DNA of 64,000 nucleotides from an uncultured Gemmatimonadales bacterium. Lineage in GTDB: Bacteria; Gemmatimonadota; Gemmatimonadetes; Gemmatimonadales; Gemmatimonadaceae. The stretch lies in the NCBI GenBank assembly GCA_963701965.1, contig OY969695.1, forward strand, positions 128,001 to 192,000, in the 5' to 3' direction. The translations under genes were made by a program, and so were the position numbers. The notes below the pieces were generated by a model. The model had not been told where the DNA came from. It was given only the letters and a program-made list of their open reading frames with translations, and made no database searches. This document shows, piece by piece, positions 4,690 through 17,910 of the stretch; the first letter of the stretch is position 1, and each line of letters starts with the position of its first letter.

Positions 4690-6031
4690 GTGCAGCCCGC
4701 TACAACCCGCGCCGACTCTGTCATCGCCGACGCCGCACGCGAGTGCGACGTGCTCGTCGTCGGCGGCGGCCCGGCCGGCTCGACCATCGCCACGCTGCTG
4801 GCCGAGCGCGGCAAGGATGTCGTCCTGCTCGAGAAGGCGCACCACCCGCGCTTTCACATCGGCGAGTCGCTCCTGCCGGCCAATGCCGCGCTGTTCGACC
4901 GGCTCGGCCTGCGCGAGCAGGTCGAGGCGATCGGGATGCAGAAGTACGGGGTCGAGTTCGTCTCGCCCGATCACGACAGGCGCCAGTTCATCGAGTTCGC
5001 CGAGGCCTGGGACAAATCGATGCCCTACGCCTGGCAGGTGCGGCGCTCGCAGCTCGACGAGCTGCTCTTTCGCCACGCCGGCTGCTCGCGGCGCGCGCAT
5101 CTTCGAAGGCCAGCGCGTGCGCGAGATCGCGTTCGACGACGACGGCGCGACGGCACAGGCAGAGCTCGACGACGGCACCCGGCGCAGCTGGCGCGCCCGC
5201 TTCGTCGTCGACGCGTCGGGCCGGGACACGCTGCTCGCCAACCAGCTGCGCTGCAAGGAGAAGAACCCGCGCCACAACAGCTCGGCGCTCTACGGCCACT
5301 TCACCGGCGCCGAGCGCCTGCCCGGCAAGCTCGAGGGCAACATCACCATCTTCTGGTTCGAGCACGGCTGGTTCTGGTTCATCCCGCTGGTCGACGGCTC
5401 GACCAGCATCGGCGCGGTCTGCTGGCCGTACTACCTGAAGTCGCGCACCAAGCCCTTGCCCGAGTTCTTCCGCGACACGATCGCGCTCTGTCCTGACCTC
5501 GAGGCGCGCCTGGCCGGCGCGACGCTGATCGACGAGCGCGTCTACGCCACCGGCAACTACTCGTACACGAGCGCGAAGAGCAGCGGCGATCGCTACCTGA
5601 TGATCGGTGACGCCTACGCCTTCGTCGATCCGGTGTTCTCGTCGGGCGTCTACCTGGCGATGCAGAGCGCGTTCGACGGCGCCGAGGTCGTCGCCGCCGT
5701 GCTCGAGCGGCGTCGCGATGCGAAGGCGCTCCGGCGCGCGTTCGACCGCAGCATCCAGCATGGCCCGCGCGAGTTCTCGTGGTTCATCTTCCGCGTCACC
5801 AATCCGACGATGCGCGAGTTCTTCATGGCGCCGCAGAACCCGTTCCGGGTCAAGGAAGCGCTGATCTCGCTGCTCGCCGGCGACATCTACGGGCGGACAC
5901 CGATCTGGCGTTCGATCTTGATCCTGAAGACGCTCTATTACCTGGTCTCGATCGGCAATCTCGGCCGCACGGTGCGCGCCTGGCGGCGCCGGCGAGTCAA
6001 CATCCGCGACGTCGAGGTCCAGGCATCGTGA
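4690..6031 (+). CDS. FAD-dependent halogenase-like oxidoreductase (frameshift ~5085)
   Basis: GGGPAG, PRFHIGESLLP, MQKYG, WFWFIP (WxWxIP), GDAYAFVDPVFSSGV. Confidence 0.85.
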
Positions 6032-6943
6032 GGCGCCTCGCCGGCCGGCGGCGGGGCCTGGTCCTGTCGCTCGCTCTGCTCGGCGCGCTGACGTTCGCCA
6101 CGCGCGCGCGCGCCGACGAGCTGCCGACGCCCGGGCCGGTGGTCGAGGGACCGGTGACGCCGGCCGCGCCGGACGCCGTCGGCACCGAGCCGCTCTGGGA
6201 GCTCGGCGTCGGCGTCGGCGGCATTCCGCTTCGACGACTATCGCGGCTCGGACCACACCAACACCTATGTCTTGCCGCTGCCGTTCTTCGCCTACCGCGG
6301 CCCGATCCTGCGCGCCGACCGCGACGGCGCGCGCGCCGTGCTGTTCGAAGGGCGCCGGTTCACCGTCGACGTCAGTCTGGGCGCATCGGTCCCGACCAAG
6401 AGCAAGGACGACGAGGCGCGTCACGGCATGCCCGACCTGGCCGGCACCTTCGAGATCGGTCCCAACCTCGTCGCCGAGCTCTGGCAGTCGAGCGATCGCA
6501 AGCTGAAGCTCGAGCTGCGCATGCCGGTGCGCGAGGCGATCACGCTCGAGCGCTCGCCACAGGCGATCGGGCTCACGTTCTCGCCCAACCTGAACCTCGA
6601 CATCAGCGGCCTGCCCGGCAAAGGGAACCTGGGGCTGCTCGCCGGCCCGCTGTTCGCCGACCACCGGTACCACCAGTACTTCTACAGCGTCTCGCCGGAG
6701 TTCGCGACCGCAACGCGGCCGGCCTATGACGCGCCGGGCGGCTACGCGGGCTGGCGCGCCACGGCCGCCTTCTCGCGCCGCTTCGGCAATGCCTGGCTGG
6801 GCGCATTCGTCCGCTACGACGACCTGCATGGCGCGACGTTTGCCCCGAGTCCTCTCGTGCGCAAGGAAACCACCGTTACGGCGGGCTTCGGCATCTCATG
6901 GATCTTCGCGACTTCGAGTCAGCGCGTGCGGACCGACGACTGA
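6028..6943 (+). CDS. MipA/OmpV family outer-membrane protein (frameshift ~6225)
   Basis: Signal peptide, PLWELGVGVG, DYRGSD, LPFFAYRG, ARHGMPDL, FEIGP, C-terminal GFGISWIF beta strand. Confidence 0.8.
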
Positions 6944-7686
6944 GCGACGACGCCGAGCTGGCGCCGTCGCTCCGTCATCGCCTCCTGTTCGCGGCGGTCA
7001 TCGTCCAGCTGGGCGCGATGTCGCTCGTCTGGGCCCTGCTCGCGCCGCTGCTGGCGCTGCTGCTGCCGCGTCAGGCCGCCGGGCGCCTCGGCCGCTCGGC
7101 GGTGTCGTTTCTCTACCGCTGCTGCTGGGCCAGCGCGGAGCGGCTCGGCCTGATGAGCGTCGACTCGAGCGCGCTCGACGCGCTGCGCGACGAGCCGGGC
7201 GGTCTGATCGTCGCCGCCAACCATCCGACCATGCTCGATGCCTTGCTCGTGGTGGCGCGGCTGCCGCGCGGCGTCTGCGTCATGAAGGCCGAGCTGATGC
7301 ACAACATCTTCCTCGGCGGCGGTGCGCGCCTGGCGCAGTACATCAGGAACGACGTCGGCCGCGGCATGGTGCGCGATGCCGTGACGACCCTGCGCGAAGG
7401 CAACCAGCTGATCCTCTTTCCCGAGGGCACGCGCACCGTCGGCGCGACGGTCAACGCCTTCAAGCCCGGCATCACGCTGATCGCCCAGCTGGCGCAGGTG
7501 CCGATCCAGACGGTGGTGGTCGAGTCGTTCTCGCCCTACCTCACCAAGGGCTGGCCGCTGCTCAAGGCGCCGCCGGTGCCGGTCCGGATCCGGCTCACGC
7601 TCGGCCCGCGCTTCGCGCCCGATGCCGACCACCGCGCCCAGCTGCGCCGTCTCGAGATCTACTTCGCCGAGGCGCTGCGCCGGTGA
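6898..7686 (+). CDS. Lysophospholipid (PlsC-like) acyltransferase; true start probably near 6940
   Basis: ANHPTMLD (HxxxxD) and LFPEGTRT motifs. Confidence 0.88.
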   Translation: MDLRDFESARADRRLSDDAELAPSLRHRLLFAAVIVQLGAMSLVWALLAPLLALLLPRQAAGRLGRSAVSFLYRCCWASAERLGLMSVDSSALDALRDEPGGLIVAANHPTMLDALLVVARLPRGVCVMKAELMHNIFLGGGARLAQYIRNDVGRGMVRDAVTTLREGNQLILFPEGTRTVGATVNAFKPGITLIAQLAQVPIQTVVVESFSPYLTKGWPLLKAPPVPVRIRLTLGPRFAPDADHRAQLRRLEIYFAEALRR

Positions 7687-8477
7687 GCGCCGCCGCGGGC
7701 GTGGCCGCGTCGACCAGCCACGTGGTCGTCATCCCGAGCTACGACAGCGGCGCGCTGGTCTACGCGACGGTGCGCGCGGCGCGCGCCGTCTGGGCGCCCG
7801 TGTGGGTGGTCGTCGACGGCAGCGGCGACGGCACCGCCGCCGGACTGCGCGAGCTGGCTGCCGGCGACCCGCAGCTGCGGGTCGAGGTGCTCGCGCGCAA
7901 CCGGGGCAAGGGCGCGGCGGTCCTGCATGCGCTCGAGCTGGCGCAGGCGGCCGGCTTCACGCATGCGCTGACGATGGACGCCGACGGCCAGCATCCGGCC
8001 GATCTGATCCCGACCTTCATGGCGGCGTCGGCGCGAAACGCCGAGGCGATGATCCTCGGCCGACCGGTGTTCGACGCCTCGGCGCCGCTGCTGCGCGTGC
8101 GCGGCCGGCAGATCTCGAACGGCCTGGCCCGGCTCGAGACGCTCGGTGCCGGCATCGACGATGCGCTCTACGGCTTTCGCGTCTATCCGATCGCGCCGCT
8201 GGTCGCGGTGATGCGCGGCCAGGCCTGGATGCGCCGCTTCGACTTCGACCCCGAGGCGGTGGTTCGCCTCGCCTGGCGCGGCGTGGCGCCGATCAACATC
8301 GCCGCGCCGGTCAAGTACCTGCGCGCCGAAGACGGCGGCGTCTCCCACTTCCGCTACGGACGCGACAACGTGCTGCTCACCTGGATGAACCTGCGCCTGC
8401 TGCTCGGCTTCGTCGTGCGCTTGCCGATGCTGCTGCTGCGCCGGGCGCGGCGCCGACCGCCGTTCGGCCGCGCCTGA
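7683..8477 (+). CDS. Glycosyltransferase family 2
   Basis: VVIPSYD, VVVDGSGDGT, NRGKGAAV, TMDADGQH (DxD), GFRVYP, SHFRYGRDN; GTG overlaps the previous TGA. Confidence 0.9.
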   Translation: MSAAAGVAASTSHVVVIPSYDSGALVYATVRAARAVWAPVWVVVDGSGDGTAAGLRELAAGDPQLRVEVLARNRGKGAAVLHALELAQAAGFTHALTMDADGQHPADLIPTFMAASARNAEAMILGRPVFDASAPLLRVRGRQISNGLARLETLGAGIDDALYGFRVYPIAPLVAVMRGQAWMRRFDFDPEAVVRLAWRGVAPINIAAPVKYLRAEDGGVSHFRYGRDNVLLTWMNLRLLLGFVVRLPMLLLRRARRRPPFGRA

Positions 8478-8496
8478 CAGCGCGGCGCCGTGCCGC

Positions 8497-9236
8497 TCAG
8501 ATCATCGCGCCGTTGATCGACACGATCTGGCCGCTGATGTAGGCGGCCTCGTCGGAGGCGAGGAAGGCGACCAGCGCCGCGACCTCGTCGGCGGTGCCGG
8601 CGCGCTTCATCGGCACGAGCTTGTCGATCGTCGCGCGGTCGAACACGCTGCCGCCATGCCGGCGTCGATGATTCCCGGCGCGACCGCGTTGACGGTGATG
8701 CCGCGGCTCGCCAGCTCGAGCGCGAGCGCCTTGGTCGCGCTGTTGAGCGCGCCCTTGGCGGCGGCGTAGTTGACCTGGCCGCGGTTGCCGGTGAGCGCCG
8801 CGATCGACGAGACGTTGACGATCCGGCCCCAGCGGGTGCGGATCATCGCCATCACCAGCGGCTGGGTGACGTTGAAGAAGCCGCCGACCGAGACGTCGAT
8901 GACGCGCTGCCACTGCTCGCGCCGCATCGCCGGAAAGACCGCGTCGTCGTGGACGCCGGCGTTGTTGACGATCACCTGGACCGCGCCGCCGGCGAGCATG
9001 CGCGCGCACGCCGCGTCGGTGCTCGCGCCATCGGTGACGTCGAAGGCGATCGCCTCGCCGCTGCCGCCGGCGGCGACGATGCGCTCGACCACGGCCGCGG
9101 CCGATTCGATCCGGCCGTTGGCATGGGCGATCACGTGCAGGCCGGCGCGGCCGAGGCGCTCGGCGATCGCCGCGCCGATGCCGCCGCTCGCGCCGGTGAC
9201 GAGGGCGCGCCGGCGCGCGTTCGGGGCGTCGTTCAT
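8497..9236 (-). CDS. fabG: 3-oxoacyl-ACP reductase, cluster-specific FabG (frameshift ~8655)
   Basis: ALVTGASGGIG, NNAG, GQVNYAAAK, VNAVAPGII, YISGQIVSINGAMI. Confidence 0.9.
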
Positions 9237-9705
9237 GGCGCGCGCGCCAGGACGCGTGTCGAGCACGACCGCGACCCGGCCCGAGGCGAGCTCGCGGCCG
9301 CCGTGATGGAGGCGAAAGGTGCAGAGCAGCCGCGTCGCGTCGGCAGCCTGGCGCTCGCTCGTCACGACCAGCTCGTCAGGCGTCGTCCGGCGGCAGGTCG
9401 TCGAGGCGCCAGCGCGCGAGGCGGACGTCGCGCGCGCTGGCGAGAAAGCCCGGCGCCGCGCTCGCTCCGGCAGCGTCGGCGCAGAGCGCGCCGTGCACCG
9501 CCATCGCCTGCGCCGCGTACTCGATCGCCGTGCTCGCCAGCAGGCCGCTCGCGCTGCGCAGCGGGTGGCGCGGGTCGCGGTGGTTGACGGCGACGCACTC
9601 GATCCGCGTCGCGTCCCAGGCGACGACCCGATCGAGCAGGCACATCGGCCCCTGATGCGGGATCAACGCGGCGATCGCGGCGTGGTCAAGCGTCGCCGGC
9701 GCCAT
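9233..9705 (-). CDS. Hotdog-fold 3-hydroxyacyl-ACP dehydratase-like protein (ApeP-like; frameshifted)
   Basis: IAALIPHQGPMCLLDRVVAWD, IEYAAQAMAVHG, GFLASARDV, ASGRVAVVL. Confidence 0.82.
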
Positions 9706-10456
9706 CGGGGGCTCGCGGTTCAGGACCCGGCGCGCGCACGACGGTGCCGACGAGGAGGACGTTCGCGAACGGCGTGCCGCGGTGCATCGGCTCGCTCGCG
9801 ACCGCGAAGCCGAGCTCGTCCAGGCGCGCCATCCAGGCCGCGAGCGTGCGAGTGGCGGCGTGATCGACGCGCTGGCCGCGCGCGAAGCTGACGATGCGAT
9901 CGACCCAGCGGGTCGCCGTGGAGCGGTGCCGCGAGGCGGCATCGCCGACGCGCAGGACCAGCCGGCCGCCGTCGGGCAGCGCGGCGCGGACCCGCGCCAG
10001 CACGGCGTCCTGCTCGACGATGCTGACGTAGTGCAGGACATCGAGGATGACCACCGTGTCGACCGCGGCGAAGGCGGTGGTTCGCATGTCGGCGCAGACG
10101 AAGTCGGCGCTGTCGCCGAGGGCGTCGCGGGCGCGCGCGACGTCGCGCGCGCGCAGGTCGATGCCGCTGACGTGGGCGTCGACCGGCGCCTCGGCCCAGG
10201 CGCTCGGCCACCGGCCCTGGCGCGCCGCCTGGCCGGCGGCGCGAACCAGGCTGGCGAGCAGCCCCTGGCCGCAGCCGATGTCGAGCACGCGCGTTCGCGG
10301 CGCGATCAATCCGTGGGCGAGCAGATGGCCGAAGACCGGATCCCAGCGCAGCTTGCCGCGTGCGAAGTGCCAGGCGAAGCGGCCGGCGCGCTGGTAGGGC
10401 GCGCTCGCCGTCTCGACCAGCGAGCGCCAGGCGAGCGCCGGCGTGGCCGTGCTCAT
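9686..10456 (-). CDS. Class I SAM-dependent methyltransferase
   Basis: FARGKLRWDPVF, VLDIGCGQG, ILDVLHY, GTPFANVLL; ATG 10456 overlaps the deacetylase stop. Confidence 0.85.
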   Translation of the reverse strand: MSTATPALAWRSLVETASAPYQRAGRFAWHFARGKLRWDPVFGHLLAHGLIAPRTRVLDIGCGQGLLASLVRAAGQAARQGRWPSAWAEAPVDAHVSGIDLRARDVARARDALGDSADFVCADMRTTAFAAVDTVVILDVLHYVSIVEQDAVLARVRAALPDGGRLVLRVGDAASRHRSTATRWVDRIVSFARGQRVDHAATRTLAAWMARLDELGFAVASEPMHRGTPFANVLLVGTVVRAPGPEPRAPDGAGDA

Positions 10457-11325
10457 GCCGCTGCCGCGATCGTGTCCGCTGCGGCCAGCAAGGTCACCGG
10501 ACGAAGGCGCGCTGCCCGCACCCGCTCGAGCAGCGCCGGCAGGACGACGAGCGCGAGGGCACGGCCCTCGGCGTCGCGCGCGGCATGGCCGTCGTGGAGC
10601 AGCAGGATGTCGCCGCCGCCGAGGCGCCGGACGAGGCGCGCCAGGACCGCGCCGGCGTCGCTGCCGACGGTGTCGAAGCCGCGCCGGGTCCAGCTGACGA
10701 GCTGCAGGTCGAGGCGTTGCAGCACCGGCGCCAGGAACGGGTTGCGCAACCCGGCCGGAGCGCGAAAGAAACGCGGCGCGGTTCCCGTGATCTCGGCCAG
10801 GCTCGCCTGCGCCGCCGCGACCTCGCGCGCCATCGCCCGCGGTCCGAGCAGCGAGAAGCGATGCGAGTGGCGATCGCTGTGGTTCTGGACGCTGTGCCCG
10901 CGCGCGACGATCGCGCGGCAGAGCGCGGGATGCGCGCGTGCCCGCTCGGCGATGCAGAAGAACGTCGCCTGCACGCCGTGCCGGTCGAGCAGGTCGAGGA
11001 CCGCAGGAGTCACCTCGGGATCGGGGCCGTCGTCGATCGTGATCGCGATCTCGCCGCGTGCGGCCGCCGCCCGCCGGCAAGCTGCGTCCAGTTGCTGCCG
11101 AGCCAGCGCGAGCGCGGCCAGAGGCCGCCGGCGGTGAGGACAAGATGATTGGCGGCGACCGCACCCAGTGCCCACGGCCAGCTCGAGGGCACGAGCGCGG
11201 CGCCGGCGCCCGCCGCCAGGTGCCAGGCGAGGCTCGCCTTGGCATAGGCCGGCCACGCCGTCGCAGCCGCAGCCGGGCGGCGTGCCGGAGGCCGGGAGCA
11301 GGCCCTCGCCGGGAGTTGTCGTCAC
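10453..11325 (-). CDS. Polysaccharide deacetylase (NodB family) with N-terminal membrane segment (frameshifted)
   Basis: AITIDDGP, ATFFCI, NHSDRH, FFRAPAG, ILLLHDG. Confidence 0.85.
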   Translation of the reverse strand: MTTTPGEGLLPASGTPPGCGCDGVAGLCQGEPRLAPGGGRRRRARALELAVGTGCGRRQSSCPHRRRPLAALALARQQLDAACRRAAAARGEIAITIDDGPDPEVTPAVLDLLDRHGVQATFFCIAERARAHPALCRAIVARGHSVQNHSDRHSHRFSLLGPRAMAREVAAAQASLAEITGTAPRFFRAPAGLRNPFLAPVLQRLDLQLVSWTRRGFDTVGSDAGAVLARLVRRLGGGDILLLHDGHAARDAEGRALALVVLPALLERVRAARLRPVTLLAAADTIAAAA

Positions 11326-13748
11326 GCGGCGATTTTCCCATGCGTCCCGGTGGCCTGATCGCGCTCGCGCCGGCCGAGCCATGCCGCCGAAAAGACGCAG
11401 GCAGAGCAACGCTCCCGGCGCGACCACGATGCCGACCGCCTGAAGCACCGGAATGGGCGACGTGGCGAGCAGCGCGAACGACGCGACCGTCGTCAGATTG
11501 GCGAGCAGCAGCGAAGCGAGCGTGTCTTCGTCGACCGCTCGCTGCGTGCGCAGGTGATCGAAGAAGAGGGCGTAGTTCGAGCCGATCGCGACCGTCAGCA
11601 GCAGGCCGACCAGGTGCAGGATGCCGAGGGCGACGCCGGTCAGCGCCAGCGCCGCGAGCACGAGCAGCGTCGCCGCGGCGATCGGCAGCGCGACGGCGAC
11701 GAGGCGCGAGAAGCGCCTCAGCCGCAGCGCGAGCAAGCCGAGGACCGCGAGCGCGCCGAGCGCCGCCTGCCACTCGGCGGCGCCGAGGAAGCGCGCGTAG
11801 ATCGCATCGAGCTCGGCCTTGATGGCGACGACGCGGGCACCTGGAACGTCGGCGACCGCGTGGCGGATGGCTTCGGCGTCGAGCGGCCGGCCGCTCGCCC
11901 GGCTGCAGGTTGATGAGCGCGCGCCAGGGCCGGGTCGCGTCGCCCGTGACGCGCAGGGCATCGACGGCGACGCCGAGCGCGCTGCCGTCGAGGTCGCGGC
12001 GTTCGATCGGCGGCTCGCTTCGCGCGGCTGCGACATCGGCGATGAAGGGTGCTAGCCGCGCCGCGGGCAGCGGTCCGTCGACGGTCGCCTCGGCGAGCCG
12101 GCCGCGCAGGCTCTCGGCTGTCGGGCAGCGCGTCGCGCCGTCGCATCTGCGTCGCGATGCTCGGCAGGAGCCGCGCCGGCGAGTCGTAGCCTTGCAGGGC
12201 GCCGGCTGGCGACGAGCGTGTCGAGGCGTGTGCCGACGGCCTCGGCGGCCGCCAGCGCGCCTTGCTCGCTCGCCGCCGAGACGGCGACCAGCGTTCCCGC
12301 GTCGGCGGCGCCGAGGTCGGCACGCAGGGCCGCGTCGAGCGCGAGATCGGCGGCCGGAACCGGGCTGAGCGACGCCAGCTCGCCGCGCCAGGGCGAGGGC
12401 ACGACGGCGAGCGCGCCGACCGCCAGCGCTGCGAGCAGGACCACGGCGACCCGAGCGCGCGGCAGCAGCGCCGCGGCCGCGGCCATGAAGCGGCCGAGCT
12501 GGCGGCGAAAGCCGGCGCCCGGCGCGCCGTTCGGCGCGATCACCGGGAAGACGAAGCGCGTCGTCGCCGCCGCAGCGGCGAGGCCGGCGATCGAGAACAC
12601 GCCGAGCTGCGCCAGCCCGGGAAAGCCGGTGAAGAGGAGCGCGGCGAAGCCGATCAGCGAGGTGAAGAGGCCGAGCCGAACGGTCGGCCAGCTCTCGCGG
12701 CGCCAGCGCTCGCTCGAATCCCGGGCCGCCGCGCGCCTGGACCAGGAAGTAGATCGCGTAGTCGACCGCCTCGCCGATCAGCGTCGTGCCGAAGCCGAGC
12801 GTCATGCCGTGCACCTGGTCGAACGCCAGGCTGACCGCGGCGATGCCGGCGACGACCCCGGTCGCGACCGGCACCAGCGCGACCAGCAGTGCGCGCAGCG
12901 ACGCGAAGGCGAGCAGCAACAGAACGACGATGACCACCGAGCCGAGGAGGGCGAGCCGCTCGACCTCGGCCTTGATGCGCTCGCGCGATTCGACGGCGAA
13001 GCGGCCCGCGCCCGAGACCCGCAGGCGCAGGCCGGGCGAAGCGACCGCATCGAATGTCGAGCGGATCGCCGCCAGGGCGCGCTGCTGGCCGTCGAGGTCG
13101 GCGCCGTCGGCGCGGGTCGTCGCGAGCAGCAGCGCGCGCGGCGTCGTTCGCGCGACCCAGACGCCGTTCTCGATCTTCGGCGCGCGCGCCGGCGTCAGCG
13201 CCTCGGCGATGCGCACCGTCTCGCCGGTCGGGTCGCGAAAGAGGATCGGCTTGAGCAGCGAGCCTGCCGGCGTGCCGAGCAGCGCCACGGTCTCGTCGAT
13301 CGCAGCGCGCAGGCCGGTGACGCTGAAGCGCGCCGCGTCGACCGCCGGGCTCAGCAGATAACGGTGCTCGAACACGAAGTTGCCGGCGTCGGCCCAGGCG
13401 GCGCGCTCGCCGTTCTCGACCGAGGCGAACAGCCCGCTGGCGCGCAGCGCGGCGGCAAGCCGGCGCGATGTGTCGGCGCGCGCGGGAGCGGCGCCGCATC
13501 GCGTCGCCGTTCACGTCGGCGTTTGCCGGCGCGCCATCGATCGCGATCAGGATCAGGCGCGCGGTCGCGCCGTTCTTCAGCTGATCGAGCAGCACGGCCT
13601 GCTCGGGAGTAGGCGCGGCGGGGAGAAAGGCGGAGAGATCGGCGACGTAGTGGGCGCGCCAGGCGATCGCCAGACCGGCGACGAGCGCGCCGAGCCAGAG
13701 CGCCAGCGTCAGCGCGGCGCGCCGGCCGATCGGGGACGGCGCGGCCAT
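11322..13748 (-). CDS. MMPL/RND-family exporter of aryl-polyene/xanthomonadin clusters (multiple frameshifts; 3' end approximate)
   Basis: ADLSAFLP, LFRDPTGE, TLGFGTTLIGEAVDYAIY, FPGLAQLGVFSIAG, HLVGLLLTVAIGSNYALFF pieces across frames. Confidence 0.85.
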
Positions 13749-13752
13749 CGGC

Positions 13753-14390
13753 TCAGGGCGTGCCGGTGACCGGACTCGATCGTCATCACCGAGCGATCGC
13801 CGTCGGCGAGCAGGACCTGGACCTCGCGCACCGTCGCCTCGCGCCCGGAGAGTCGCAGCGACTGGACCTGGCCGCGCAGACGCAGGTCGCGCGGCACGAG
13901 CTCGAGCGTCCAGCGCTCGGGCGTGCCCGAGACCGTCGCCTCGAACAGGCGCTCGAGCGTGCCGCGGTTGCCGGTGAGCGTGCCGCGCACCGCCTCGACG
14001 ATCACCGACGCTTCGGGCGACGCGTCGAGCTGCATCGTCCGGCTGCGCTCGCCGAGCGTCATCGTCATGCGTGTTGCCGTCGACGGCGAGCTTCTCGTGG
14101 CGCGGCTTCAGCGTCTCGCGGATGAACGTGGTCGGGGGCGCGAAACGACAGTCGCCCCGACGACATCAGCGTCCGGTCGAGCATCTCGACGCGGCGTGTT
14201 TCGGTGAAGGTGGCCTCGCCGGATCGCGCCTGGCCGAGCAGCGCCATCAGCGCGCCGAGATCGAGCCCGGGCGCGGCAGCGGTCGCGCCGGCGAGCGCCA
14301 GCGTCGCGCCGGCGATCAGCCAGGCGCGGCGCAGGGCGCCGCGGCGCCGCTCAGGCCGGCCCTGGCAGGAGCTCGCGGGCGCTTCGGCAT
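13753..14390 (-). CDS. LolA-like periplasmic lipoprotein/lipid carrier (frameshifted; ends approximate)
   Basis: Signal peptide, ATFTETRRVEMLDRTLMSSGRLSFRAPD, RWTLELVP, DGDRSVMTI. Confidence 0.78.
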
Positions 14391-15326
14391 CGGCCCAGAA
14401 GTCGTAGAAGTTGAACCAGTTGTAGGGCGCCTCGCGGCACAGGCCTTCGAGCGTCGCGACGTAGCGCTCGAGCGCGGCCCGGATCGCGAGGTCGCGCGCC
14501 GCCGGCGGCGGACGCTTGCGTCTCGGCCGCGACGCCGAAGTCGGCGATCTCGATGAAGCGCAGGTCGTAGTCACGGCCGCCGCGATAGAGGCCGGCCATG
14601 AACACGACCTTCTGGCGCAGCATCGCCGCGAGCCGGAACGGGCCGTCGGAGAAGACCGCCGGCGCGCCGAGGAACGGCAGCGCGACCGACTTCGAGCGCT
14701 GCGAGTTGCCCGGCAGGGTGCGATCGGCGAGCAGGCCGGCGATGCCGCCGTCGTCGAGCCAGCGCCGGATCGCGAGCATGGCGTCGACGCGTCCGAGGCC
14801 GATCGTGTGCAGCTTGGCGCGCGGCGCCAGCGCCGCCAGCGTCTCGTTGATCAGGCGCGCGTTGTCTTCGTACATGATCATCGCCACCGCCAGGCCGCGC
14901 TCGTGGCCGATCATGCGCAGCGCCTCGAAGCTGCCGAGGTGGGCGCCGAAGGCGAGCACGCCGCGGCCCTCGGCCAGGCGCCGGTGCATCGCCTCGACGC
15001 CGCTGGCCGTGAAGGTGAACTCGTCGAAGCGCTCCTGCAGCAGGTAGACGCGATCGAGCACCATCGCGGCGAAGGTGAAGAGGTGGGTGTAGACGTCGCC
15101 CCAGGTCGCGGCTGCGGCCGAGCGCGCGCGAGAGATAGCGCGCCGAGTGATGCCGGGTCGACCGGTCGAGGCAGAAGAAGCAGACGATCGGATGAAGCAT
15201 CAGCCGCGCCGCGCGCCGCCCGGCGGTGACCGCGATCCAGCGCATGAGGCGCAGCTGCCACAGGCTGCTGCGCTCGCGCTGGCGCGCCCACGCGGTCGGC
15301 GGCGCGGTGCCGCTGCCGGCCTTCAC
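14351..15326 (-). CDS. LpxL-like acyltransferase (frameshifted)
   Basis: WARQRERS, VLDRVYLL, GAHLGSFEALR, GLLADR, PFLGAPAVFSDGPF, PYNWFNFYDFW. Confidence 0.82.
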
Positions 15327-15656
15327 GATGCGCTCCTCGGTGACGTCGGCGCGTGCGATCTCGCCGCTCGCGACAACGCGACCGGCCTCGTCGACGCGCC
15401 AGGCGAGCGAGCGAGCGCCGACGACGAACTCGAGCGCGAGCGTCGCGCCCGGACGGACGGCGCCGCTGAACTTGACCACCGACAGGCGTGGCGCATCGCC
15501 GAGCGACGCGCACAGAACCGGCTCGACACGCGCCGCTTCGAGCACTTCGGCGAGAAGGGCGACGCCGGGCAGGATCGGCTGCCCGGGGAAATGGCCGGCG
15601 AATGCCGGATGGTCGGGCGCGACCACGAACGTTCGCCGGAACGCCGCACCGTTCAT
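15323..15656 (-). CDS. FabA/FabZ-like dehydratase (ApeI-like)
   Basis: DHPAFAGHFPGQPILPGVALL, VKFSGAVRPG. Confidence 0.82.
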
Positions 15657-17012
15657 CGCCGGATCGCGCCGCTCTGCTGCGCCAGCTCGGCAAGGCGCGC
15701 CGCCGTCAGCTTGCCGGTGGTCTCGCGCGGCAGGGCCGGCGACGCGGACGATCCGGCGCGGCAGGAACGCGGCGTCGACGCGCTCGCGCAGCGCGGCGCC
15801 GATCTGCTCGTTCGACAGGCCCGGCGCGACGACGAAAGCCACCAGGCGGACGATGCCGAGCGCGTCGCCGCTCGTCTCGGGCGGCATCCAGAACGCGCCG
15901 TCGACGACGCCGTCGATCGAGTTGAGCTGGAAGTCGAGATGGCCGATCGAGCTGCGCTTGCCGGCGATGTTGATCAGGTCGTGGGTCCGGCCGAGCAGGC
16001 GGAAGGTATCGCCGCCGGTGACCTCGAGCACGTCGGCGAGCAGCGTCGGCTGCGGCACGTGGCCGCCGCTCACCGTGACCGCGTCGCCGTCGCCGGCGAG
16101 GCGGACGCCGTCGAGGGTCTGCCACTCGGCCCGGCAGTGGTTCGCCGCGACGCCACCTGGCCGGCCTCGGTGCAGCCGTAGATCTCGAGCAGCGGCGCGC
16201 CGAGGCGCGCCTCGGCCTCGGCCGCGAGCTGCGGCGCAAGCGGCGCGGTCGCGCACAGCACCAGCGTCAGCGGCGGCAGCGCCAGCTTCGCGTCGAGCAC
16301 CGTCCTGAGGTGAAACGGCGTCGTCACCAGCATGCGCGGCGCCGGCACGCGGCGCAGCGCCGCGGCGATGTCGGCGGGGAAGAACGGCCGGCTGGCGTCG
16401 AGGACGGCGCCGCCGTGAAGGGCGAGCAGCACGCTCGACTCGAAGCCGTACATGTGCTGCGGCGGCACGGTCGCGACCAGCGAGATGCCGGCCACGTCGG
16501 CGCGGCCCAGCGCCTCGGCCAGGCGACGCGCTTCGCTGCGGGCGTTGCTGGATCAGGAGGCCCCAGGGCTTGGCATGCGGCACCGGATCGCCGGTCGAGC
16601 CCGAGGTCAGCACATAGGCGGCGACGAAGTCGGGATCGATCTCGGGGATGGTGTCGATGCCGGCAACCTCGCCGTCGCGGTCGGCGTGCGTCACCGTCGT
16701 CAGGCCGTGACCGTCGTCGCCGTCCTCGACCAGCGCATAGACGCCGGCAAAGCGCGCGCGCAGGCGCGTCACCGTGTCGGCAACGTGGTTCGGCGGCAGC
16801 AGGCTGGTGTGGCCGCGCAGCAGCGCCGCGGCGAATCCGACCGCGAAGCGGTAGCGGTCGCTCGAGAGATTGAGCATCGCGCCGCTGGCGGGCAGCCGCT
16901 CGGCGAGCGCAACGGCGTCGGCAAGGAAGCGCCGGCGCGAGATCGCCCGTCCGGCACGGGTCGCGAACGCGGCGTCGAGGTCGCCCTCGGCGATGAGCGC
17001 GCTTTCAGTCAT
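15653..17012 (-). CDS. AMP-binding acyl/aryl-ACP ligase (XanA2/ApeH-like; frameshifted)
   Basis: LTSGSTGDP, ATVPPQHMYGFESS, EIYGCTEAG, LLGRTHDLINIAGKRSS, PRETTGKL. Confidence 0.85.
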
Positions 17013-17634
17013 GGGGCACGCCGCGGTCGGCATAGGCGCGCAACGCCTGGCTCAGCGTCGCCCGCTCGAACTCCGGGTGCAGTCGATAGCGCAGCAGGTA
17101 TTCGCCGACGAAGAGGGCGAGCATCGCCAGCGGCGTCGCCAGGTTCGCGAACGCCGCCCAGGTGGCGAAAGGCGCGAGCGCATAGAGGGCGAGCGACAGC
17201 GCGCCCATGGCGACGAAGTAGACCGTCCAGACGACGGTGACCTTGCGCGAATAGGCCGCCATCGCCGGCGTCAGCCCGCCGTGGACGCGGCGCGCCAGCG
17301 CGGTGATGAGCGACTCGCGGCCGCCGACCAGCGTCAGGCCGAACACGAACGCCAGCAGGACATGGATCGCGACGTGCTGGGCGACGAAGACCGTGCCCGG
17401 CGCAAGGCCGCCGCCTTGCCAAGCTTGCCACGCCAGCGCTGCCACCGCGAGGGCGGCCAGCGTCGCGAGCGGTCGCTGGCCGCGTTGCCAGGCGAGGAAG
17501 GCGGCCAGCGCCAGCATCGGCCCGACGATCGCGAGCGCGCTCCACGACGAGGTCGGCGCCCGCGTCATCAGCCAGTGCGAGGCGAGCACGTAGGCGATGC
17601 CTGCCGCTCCCGCTGCGAGGAGGCGGATGCGCAT
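17005..17634 (-). CDS. Integral membrane protein of xanthomonadin/APE clusters (ApeG-like)
   Basis: Multiple TM helices; FGLTL, ARRVHG, YSRKVTVVW, WAAFAN, FVGEYLLRYRLHP. Confidence 0.75.
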   Translation of the reverse strand: MRIRLLAAGAAGIAYVLASHWLMTRAPTSSWSALAIVGPMLALAAFLAWQRGQRPLATLAALAVAALAWQAWQGGGLAPGTVFVAQHVAIHVLLAFVFGLTLVGGRESLITALARRVHGGLTPAMAAYSRKVTVVWTVYFVAMGALSLALYALAPFATWAAFANLATPLAMLALFVGEYLLRYRLHPEFERATLSQALRAYADRGVPHD

Positions 17635-17640
17635 GGGCAG

Positions 17641-17910
17641 CTACCCCTGTCGGTTCGCGGCGATGTGGTCGGTCAGGCTCGCCAGCGACTTGAAGATGCG
17701 CACGTTGTCTTGGTCGTCCGAGCGAAGCTGGAAGCCGTAGCGCTGCGAGACGACGAGCGCGACCTCGAGGATGTCGATCGAGTCGAGGCCGAGGCCTTCG
17801 CCGTAGAGCGGCGCGTCGGGGTCGATCGATTCGGGAGCGATGTCGAGGTTGAGGGCCTCGACCAGGAGCGCGGCGATCTCGCTCTGCAGGGCGGTGTGGA
17901 CGGAGGTCAT
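17641..17910 (-). CDS. Acyl carrier protein
   Basis: LYGEGLGLDSIDILE with the phosphopantetheine Ser; 89 aa, acidic. Confidence 0.93.
   Translation of the reverse strand: MTSVHTALQSEIAALLVEALNLDIAPESIDPDAPLYGEGLGLDSIDILEVALVVSQRYGFQLRSDDQDNVRIFKSLASLTDHIAANRQG

Follow-up and report, generated by a model that had tools for sequence, protein, structure and literature searches.

A probable main locus of an arc/xanthomonadin-like aryl polyene cluster without the ketosynthase and chain-length factor that its relatives carry at a second locus

The 64,000-nucleotide stretch analysed here (the window; positions 128,001 to 192,000 of contig OY969695.1) carries at 4690..17910 a gene cluster that an earlier note, made from the sequence alone, had described as a complete-looking xanthomonadin/aryl polyene (APE)-type cluster with no ketosynthase (KS) or chain-length factor (CLF). 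We conclude that this is very probably the main locus of an arc/xanthomonadin-like aryl polyene cluster, that it comes from a Caldimonas-like soil bacterium, and that elongation is likely provided in trans by a KS-CLF-halogenase cassette such as close relatives carry at a second locus. Among the options raised in the earlier note, KS and CLF acting from another locus is therefore favoured, because the relatives do carry such a pair; for the window's own organism it is a prediction from sequence.

All 16 genes that the earlier note had named were located, in two convergent runs (+ strand, 4690-8477; - strand, 17910-8497). Family scans back the acyl carrier protein (ACP), AMP-ligase, LpxL-like and PlsC-like acyltransferases, LolA-like carrier, deacetylase, methyltransferase, FabG, GT2, MipA and halogenase-like flavoprotein, and the two dehydratases and the exporter were identified by homology to Rhizobacter Root404 (locus L026) and by the gene order in PMC3949708. 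The window thus holds a dedicated ACP and AMP-ligase as starter module (NF006617, PF00501 and Root404 orthologues), a FabG-type ketoreductase with hotdog dehydratases, the latter by homology and order only, and a lipid attachment and export module (GT2, acyltransferases, LolA-like carrier, exporter). Its gene order is that of Azoarcus arcV-arcM, arcI-H and arcE-D-C-A, and that of the Root404 locus with the same flanking genes, minus three genes: KS, CLF and the XanB2 chorismatase. The last, whose loss from the slot between mipA and the halogenase gene had gone unnoticed in the earlier note, is taken up below. Profiles built from 98 KS and 126 CLF sequences score no higher than 0.7 bits in any of the six frames across the window, compared with 651 and 367 bits for the control locus L026. 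Neither gene was thus found in the window, intact or as a remnant, in agreement with the earlier claim that the cluster has no KS-like reading frame.

At the site that holds KS-CLF (ArcK-ArcJ) in most relatives (9686..9705, - strand), the methyltransferase stop (9688-9686) and the dehydratase start (9705) overlap by 20 nucleotides without a remnant, as had been noted. In three of the four runs (soil or unlabelled), one contig crosses this junction at ~95% identity: X1 (9412-10108, no gaps), X2 (9274-9858, one gap) and X4 (9542-10618, no gaps); X3 gave no crossing piece among those listed. A search with the methyltransferase brought up 80 genome loci: in 19 the next gene is the dehydratase, in 53 it is a KS, and 8 are truncated or rearranged; the corresponding numbers for 80 metagenome loci are 26, 35 and 19. 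Methyltransferase/dehydratase junctions are short or overlapping in relatives, many being a 4-nucleotide stop/start overlap. Because contigs of three runs bridge it and 19 of the 80 related genome loci share it, the junction is real, and the concern over an assembly collapse at 9680-9730 can be dismissed.

The missing pair is found at a second locus in relatives. In 18 of the 19 genomes with a KS-less junction, a CLF match lies elsewhere, each time with an adjoining APE-type KS (KS2; cut by a contig end in G010). These remote KS genes share 68-72% identity with one of Root404, a genome that has it in addition to its in-cluster KS (KS1). A halogenase-like gene of ~540 residues follows the remote KS-CLF in 16 of the 18. 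Among the other members of the window's clade, eight of nine genomes have the cassette after the same MFS gene, in several cases with pepP ahead of it; in G019 it is found inside the KS1-less cluster (L126). Beside the Variovorax brevis cassette (L113) lies a gene that we take to encode a muropeptide transporter. KS1 and KS2 both exceed the NF006618 cut-off, as both CLF partners do that of PF13723. KS2 keeps the ACSSS motif, and its best PDB matches, ahead of FabF, are 6qsp and 7f28, presumably ApeO structures. In a FastTree phylogeny, in which the frameshifted rows L065 and L088 form long branches, KS1 and KS2 group as sisters, separate from FabF. The earlier note had set against its claim the possibility that the genome holds a KS/CLF pair of APE type at another site. 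Eight of the nine other clade genomes and 18 of 19 same-layout genomes have such a pair; none was found in the window or in its source assembly (G000), which holds ~0.2 Mb of the organism itself. Compared with the second locus of G006 (L118), runs X1-X4 gave contigs over KS2, CLF2, the halogenase and pepP at ~81-90% identity, which are unlinkable to the window's strain and were not counted.

KS2, at an identity of at least 69%, occurs in 6 of 50 genomes with an in-cluster pair, in 7 of 51 with Root404 included, and in 10 of 51 if three sister-subclade copies are added; the count covered 50 of the 53 methyltransferase-KS-order loci other than Root404's plus L073, and two of the 50 searched genomes gave no match even for their own KS at E 1e-70. 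Against the 18 of 19 KS-less genomes, Fisher tests return p = 3e-10 (7/51) and 9e-9 (10/51), values overstated by kinship, as kin are non-independent, and drawn from genomes of which many are incomplete metagenome-assembled genomes (MAGs). The fairer count comes from a concatenated tree of 72 of 81 rows (eight loci with other or truncated gene order and one with too few residues were left out), on which KS1/CLF1 was lost in three independent events: in the window's ten-member clade (support 1.0), in Variovorax with L081, and in L036. The cassette is present in each of these lineages. As a separate observation, the cluster in L084 (G066), L086 (G068), L148 (G064) and L223 contains, or has close to it, a further KS/CLF pair besides its first. 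This additional pair belongs to a divergent sister subclade of KS2 and is followed by a halogenase-like gene in L084 and L223; such genomes may make two polyenes.

The assembly from which the window was taken is a single 5.12-Mb contig deposited as an uncultured Gemmatimonadales bacterium. About 50 of its 4-kb bins are compositionally unlike the rest, under a model trained on part of the window's block, and nearly all lie in the first 330 kb, including that block at ~92-210 kb. RarA of this block shares 94% and 88% identity with that of two window-clade genomes but 53-55% with that of three genomes of the assembly's own genus, and G000 has second, distant copies of ftsK, rarA and trxB (45%, 54% and 36%). 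None of five same-genus genomes has a match to the cluster ACP, and 30 relatives gave a single partial one. The nearest cluster loci are labelled Caldimonas, with up to 84% DNA identity, and in a metagenome scan the best match to the window was 80%, over one segment, so that no long, near-identical contig linked the two loci on one molecule. The assembly is chimeric: the window belongs to a Caldimonas-like block embedded in sequence of another organism. More widely, G000:C1:1-335000 and ~5112000-5116566 form a mosaic of compositionally foreign blocks without N gaps, of which ~0.2 Mb is Caldimonas-like; ~8.5 kb before the window, the same foreign block holds a gene (G000:C1:118231-119535) whose translation we take to be a DesA-like acyl-CoA desaturase. 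Findings elsewhere in this foreign stretch should not be credited to the organism that the assembly names. Profile searches of G000 gave no cluster-type pair, a result that does not count because the assembly is chimeric: PF13723 had no match there, nor did its controls, and a home-built CLF profile with a positive control had none either. Three intact FabF-like genes of G000 were set aside, as they lie in the other organism's DNA.

Several points weigh against elongation in trans or leave part of it unexplained. G005, a clade genome of 4.1 Mb, matched neither CLF nor APE-type KS. G000 gave no match to KS2, CLF2 or the second halogenase, which carries little weight because only ~0.2 Mb of the organism is there and a Caldimonas-type pepP or gap is missing as well; for the same reason the absence of XanB2 from G000 says nothing. 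In the nine clade genomes, which are incomplete MAGs, XanB2 was found in none by protein query (one weak partial match, E 8e-4) or TIGR04444, with the Root404 and Variovorax controls matching. UbiC was likewise found in none of the nine, so that the usual starter supply is unexplained; this absence is not special to the clade, since Root404 and G019 also gave no match. Three losses are few independent events, and KS2 stands beside KS1 in 7-10 genomes, where it may have a job of its own. Aryl polyene pigments were reportedly described from Variovorax paradoxus B4 in 2016; we met no pigment data in the literature for V. paradoxus S110 or any Caldimonas, and a search for 'aryl polyene' with 'Caldimonas', with subscription papers and preprint supplements outside its scope, found no paper on this pathway in Caldimonas.

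Could the missing pair instead be an artefact, or the cluster a relic? That the assembler lost ~2 kb with KS-CLF at the junction has next to no chance of being right. The assembly is indeed chimeric and indel-rich, but the bridging contigs come from three independent runs and the junction is common to the whole ten-member clade; a dropped KS-CLF is already refuted by these contigs unless the reads of this very strain differ. It is also highly improbable that the cluster is a decaying remnant in which KS/CLF loss was followed by pseudogenisation. This would fit at least 16 frame changes across 9 of the 16 genes, none of which occurs in the intact relative locus L159. However, flanking housekeeping genes (ftsK and the liv genes) are broken too, and the frame changes are for this reason likely consensus errors; at the FabG break (8645), two X1 contigs have one more base. 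The KS-less layout, moreover, has intact frames in L159 and returns in the genome and metagenome loci counted above.

Two further explanations accept the locus as functional and differ in how, or whether, the chain is elongated. A pair consisting of an ACP and a frameshifted FabF-like KS (KS3) is located at G000:C1:124954-126478, between lolA and rarA, ~1.5 kb before the window's first base and ~6.3 kb from the halogenase gene, outside the view of the earlier note. Elongation without a CLF, by this pair or by primary FabF, seems very unlikely to us. KS3 keeps its active-site Cys motif, its position between lolA and rarA is conserved in the window's clade (L135, L136, L138, L140), it is near the cluster in G003 as well, and related pairs lie inside many arc-type clusters (e.g. 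L023, L029, L031, L034-L038, L050, L054, L075), with an uncharacterised upstream gene of ~200-290 residues in L023 and L036. Yet KS3 groups away from the APE KS clades, has FabF as its best structure matches and has its own ACP, and KS3-bearing clusters and genomes, all of those mapped, also have KS1-CLF1 or KS2-CLF2. In Acinetobacter baumannii, full polyene was obtained from the KS-CLF pair only, and a homodimeric KS merely raised output (PMC8358021). An accessory role is thus more likely for KS3, possibly as a helper by analogy with ApeR rather than as the elongating enzyme. Alternatively, the main locus might make a short (halo)aryl or acyl glycolipid without elongation, while KS2-CLF2-halogenase serves another pathway. 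That XanB2, UbiC and DarA were found in none of the nine clade genomes and that KS2 co-occurs with KS1 in some genomes would agree with this, but we consider it highly improbable. KS-less loci keep FabG and both dehydratases, enzymes that act on elongation intermediates; in the 18 mapped stretches, no separate ACP, reductase or dehydratase accompanies the KS2 cassette, except where it lies inside the main cluster; and KS2 presence complements KS1 loss in three lineages. The non-elongated halo-acyl glycolipid of an undescribed system that the earlier note had entertained therefore has little support.

If elongation is indeed provided from the second locus, the AMP-ligase would load a hydroxybenzoate-type starter on the ACP, as its homologues suggest; XanA2/XanC is such a system, with a ligase that loads a benzoate-type starter on an ACP (PMC6859482). 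The remote KS2/CLF2 would add malonyl units in trans, and the local FabG and hotdog dehydratases would reduce and dehydrate the product of each round, giving a polyene. Decoration may follow, by the methyltransferase and by one of the flavin halogenases or both; of these predicted halogenases, one, with both motifs, lies in the window and the second in the relatives' remote cassette. The two acyltransferases and GT2 would then attach the polyene to a lipid anchor, and MMPL, LolA and MipA would carry it to the envelope, where it could serve as a photo- and oxidation-protective pigment.

Since XanB2 is missing from the cluster and was not found in the clade genomes, we do not class the cluster as that of a strict xanthomonadin producer. 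Loss of the XanB2 homologue in Lysobacter leaves ~10% of the pigment, and feeding 3-hydroxybenzoate rescues it (PMC3691225), making an outside or side-route starter supply plausible in the clade by analogy. Across G001-G009, G019 and G020, UbiC (PF04345) was found in 0 of 11 and XanB2 was not found in 10 of 11, and the source of 4-hydroxybenzoate for ubiquinone is likewise unexplained. With DarA, a query labelled from the gene order in PMC3949708, matches were obtained in none of the nine clade genomes and in 5 of 21 genomes overall (DarB was not searched); the product is therefore likely a lipid-anchored xanthomonadin-like pigment rather than an arcuflavin. In two Methylibium loci we also observed that a dialkylresorcinol (DAR)-type gene run interrupts the aryl polyene operon: in L027 (992-3170) it separates the exporter from the deacetylase, and in L031 it is upstream of the deacetylase.

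The seemingly complete, KS-less cluster would thus be the main part of an aryl polyene pathway divided between two loci, as was tabulated in 2014. What is new is the near-complementary distribution of two paralogous KS/CLF modules over 70 genomes and a lineage without a recognised starter enzyme; together, these make it possible to test cleanly if one KS/CLF module can replace another and if such modules set polyene length. A bolder and rather doubtful proposal is that the product of this widespread Caldimonas lineage of soils is a new, halogenated aryl polyene lipid, built on a starter supplied by neither known chorismate route (no XanB2 or UbiC in nine of nine), for instance from scavenged plant or soil benzoates, and that its in-cluster KS/CLF was swapped for an unlinked paralogous KS/CLF/halogenase cassette, as happened three times in Burkholderiales, which may change chain length and halogenation.

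On the + strand, the cluster begins with the flavin-dependent halogenase-like gene (4690..6031), of inferred ArcA/Xcc4013 type by gene order and size; it is 76% identical to the Root404 orthologue, has a frame change near 5075 and contains GGGPAG and WFWFIP motifs, its best NCBIfam match being the CmlS halogenase, below cut-off. It is followed by the MipA outer-membrane protein (ArcC; 6028..6943, start approximate; PF06629 over cut-off, one frame change near 6225), the PlsC-like acyltransferase (ArcD; 6898..7686; TIGR00530 E 3.8e-17, below cut-off; 60% to Root404) and the GT2 glycosyltransferase (ArcE; 7683..8477; GT2 family matches, 75% to Root404). The - strand run ends with the FabG-like ketoreductase (ArcH/XanH; 8497..9236), which has a frame change near 8645 and matches NF004200 at E 2.9e-76 on its first piece. 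Next to it is the first hotdog dehydratase (9233..9705, end approximate), labelled ArcI from the gene order in PMC3949708; it is 65%/51% identical to its Root404 orthologue, has a frame change near 9385, and its first piece gave no Pfam or NCBIfam match. Upstream lie the S-adenosylmethionine-dependent methyltransferase (ArcM; 9686..10456; family matches below cut-off, 63% to Root404), the polysaccharide deacetylase (ArcN; 10453..11300, start approximate; PF01522 over cut-off, frame change near 11065) and the MMPL-like exporter (ArcP; 11390..13748, end approximate), which has at least four frame changes and is, in pieces, 56-66% identical to Root404 and 60-78% to L159. The LolA-like carrier (ArcQ; 13709..14350, start approximate; PF19574) and the LpxL-like acyltransferase (ArcR; 14351..15326, ends approximate; PF03279) are both over cut-off with two frame changes each. 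The second hotdog dehydratase (15323..15649; 52% to its Root404 orthologue) is labelled ArcS from the same gene order. The run starts, on its strand, with the ACP (ArcV/XanC type; 17641..17910; NF006617, PRK09184, 139.9 bits with a cut-off of 70; 83% to Root404), the membrane protein (ArcU; 17005..17634; weak PF04279 match, 54% to Root404) and the AMP-ligase (ArcT/XanA2 type; 15646..17012, end approximate; PF00501 over cut-off, three frame changes).

The closest known arrangement is that of V. paradoxus S110, and the idea of an undescribed layout has to be given up, since the split is already tabulated for that strain. In its main locus (Vapar_2669-2682), methyltransferase Vapar_2676 is beside dehydratase 2677, and its halogenase, CLF and KS (Vapar_0260-0262) are next to a muropeptide transporter (PMC3949708 Table S2). 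S110 shares with the window the ACP, membrane protein, ligase, acyltransferase, exporter, deacetylase, methyltransferase-dehydratase, FabG, glycosyltransferase and acyltransferase, and with the window's relatives the separate KS, CLF and halogenase locus. Unlike the window, it has a chorismatase in the main locus, a UbiE-like methyltransferase and a DAR cluster, whereas the window, without chorismatase, has a MipA and an ArcA-type halogenase, neither of which is tabulated for the S110 main locus; the S110 assignment is bioinformatic (PMC3949708). Vapar_0260-0262 are 55%, 53% and 62% identical to Xcc4001, Xcc3999 and Xcc3998, as the best matches in S110 (PMC3949708 Table S4). Halogenase Xcc4001, CLF Xcc3999 and KS Xcc3998 are the sub-module that best matches the Variovorax remote cassette among the four tabulated genomes, and from gene order and genus we infer that KS2 is orthologous to Xcc3998. 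The pig cluster of Xanthomonas campestris (Xcc3998-4015) and ORF1-17 of Lysobacter enzymogenes have the same enzyme set as the window (PMC3949708 Table S4, PMC3691225, PMC6859482), but each in one contiguous cluster with XanB2, and deacetylase, methyltransferase and MipA are not in Table S4; the CLF is essential for the Lysobacter pigment (PMC3691225). In the gammaproteobacterial ape system (ApeO-ApeC, ApeR), a KS and a half-size CLF elongate and a second, homodimeric KS helps (PMC8358021). The ACP-KS3 pair may parallel ApeR, although KS3 best matches FabF in the PDB and the ape cluster layout differs. Azoarcus sp. BH72, lastly, has a same-order counterpart for every window gene and a pathway split over unlinked arc loci that are both needed: KS and ligase lie in different loci, and polar insertions in either abolish the pigment (PMC3949708). 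Its split point is different, as arcK/arcJ stay with arcI/arcH, and it has ArcB (XanB2) and DAR genes, none of which were found in the window's clade, so that an arcuflavin-type DAR ester is not expected there. Azoarcus ArcT adenylates 3-hydroxybenzoate and 4-substituted benzoates, and the strain has arcA yet a non-brominated pigment (PMC3949708).

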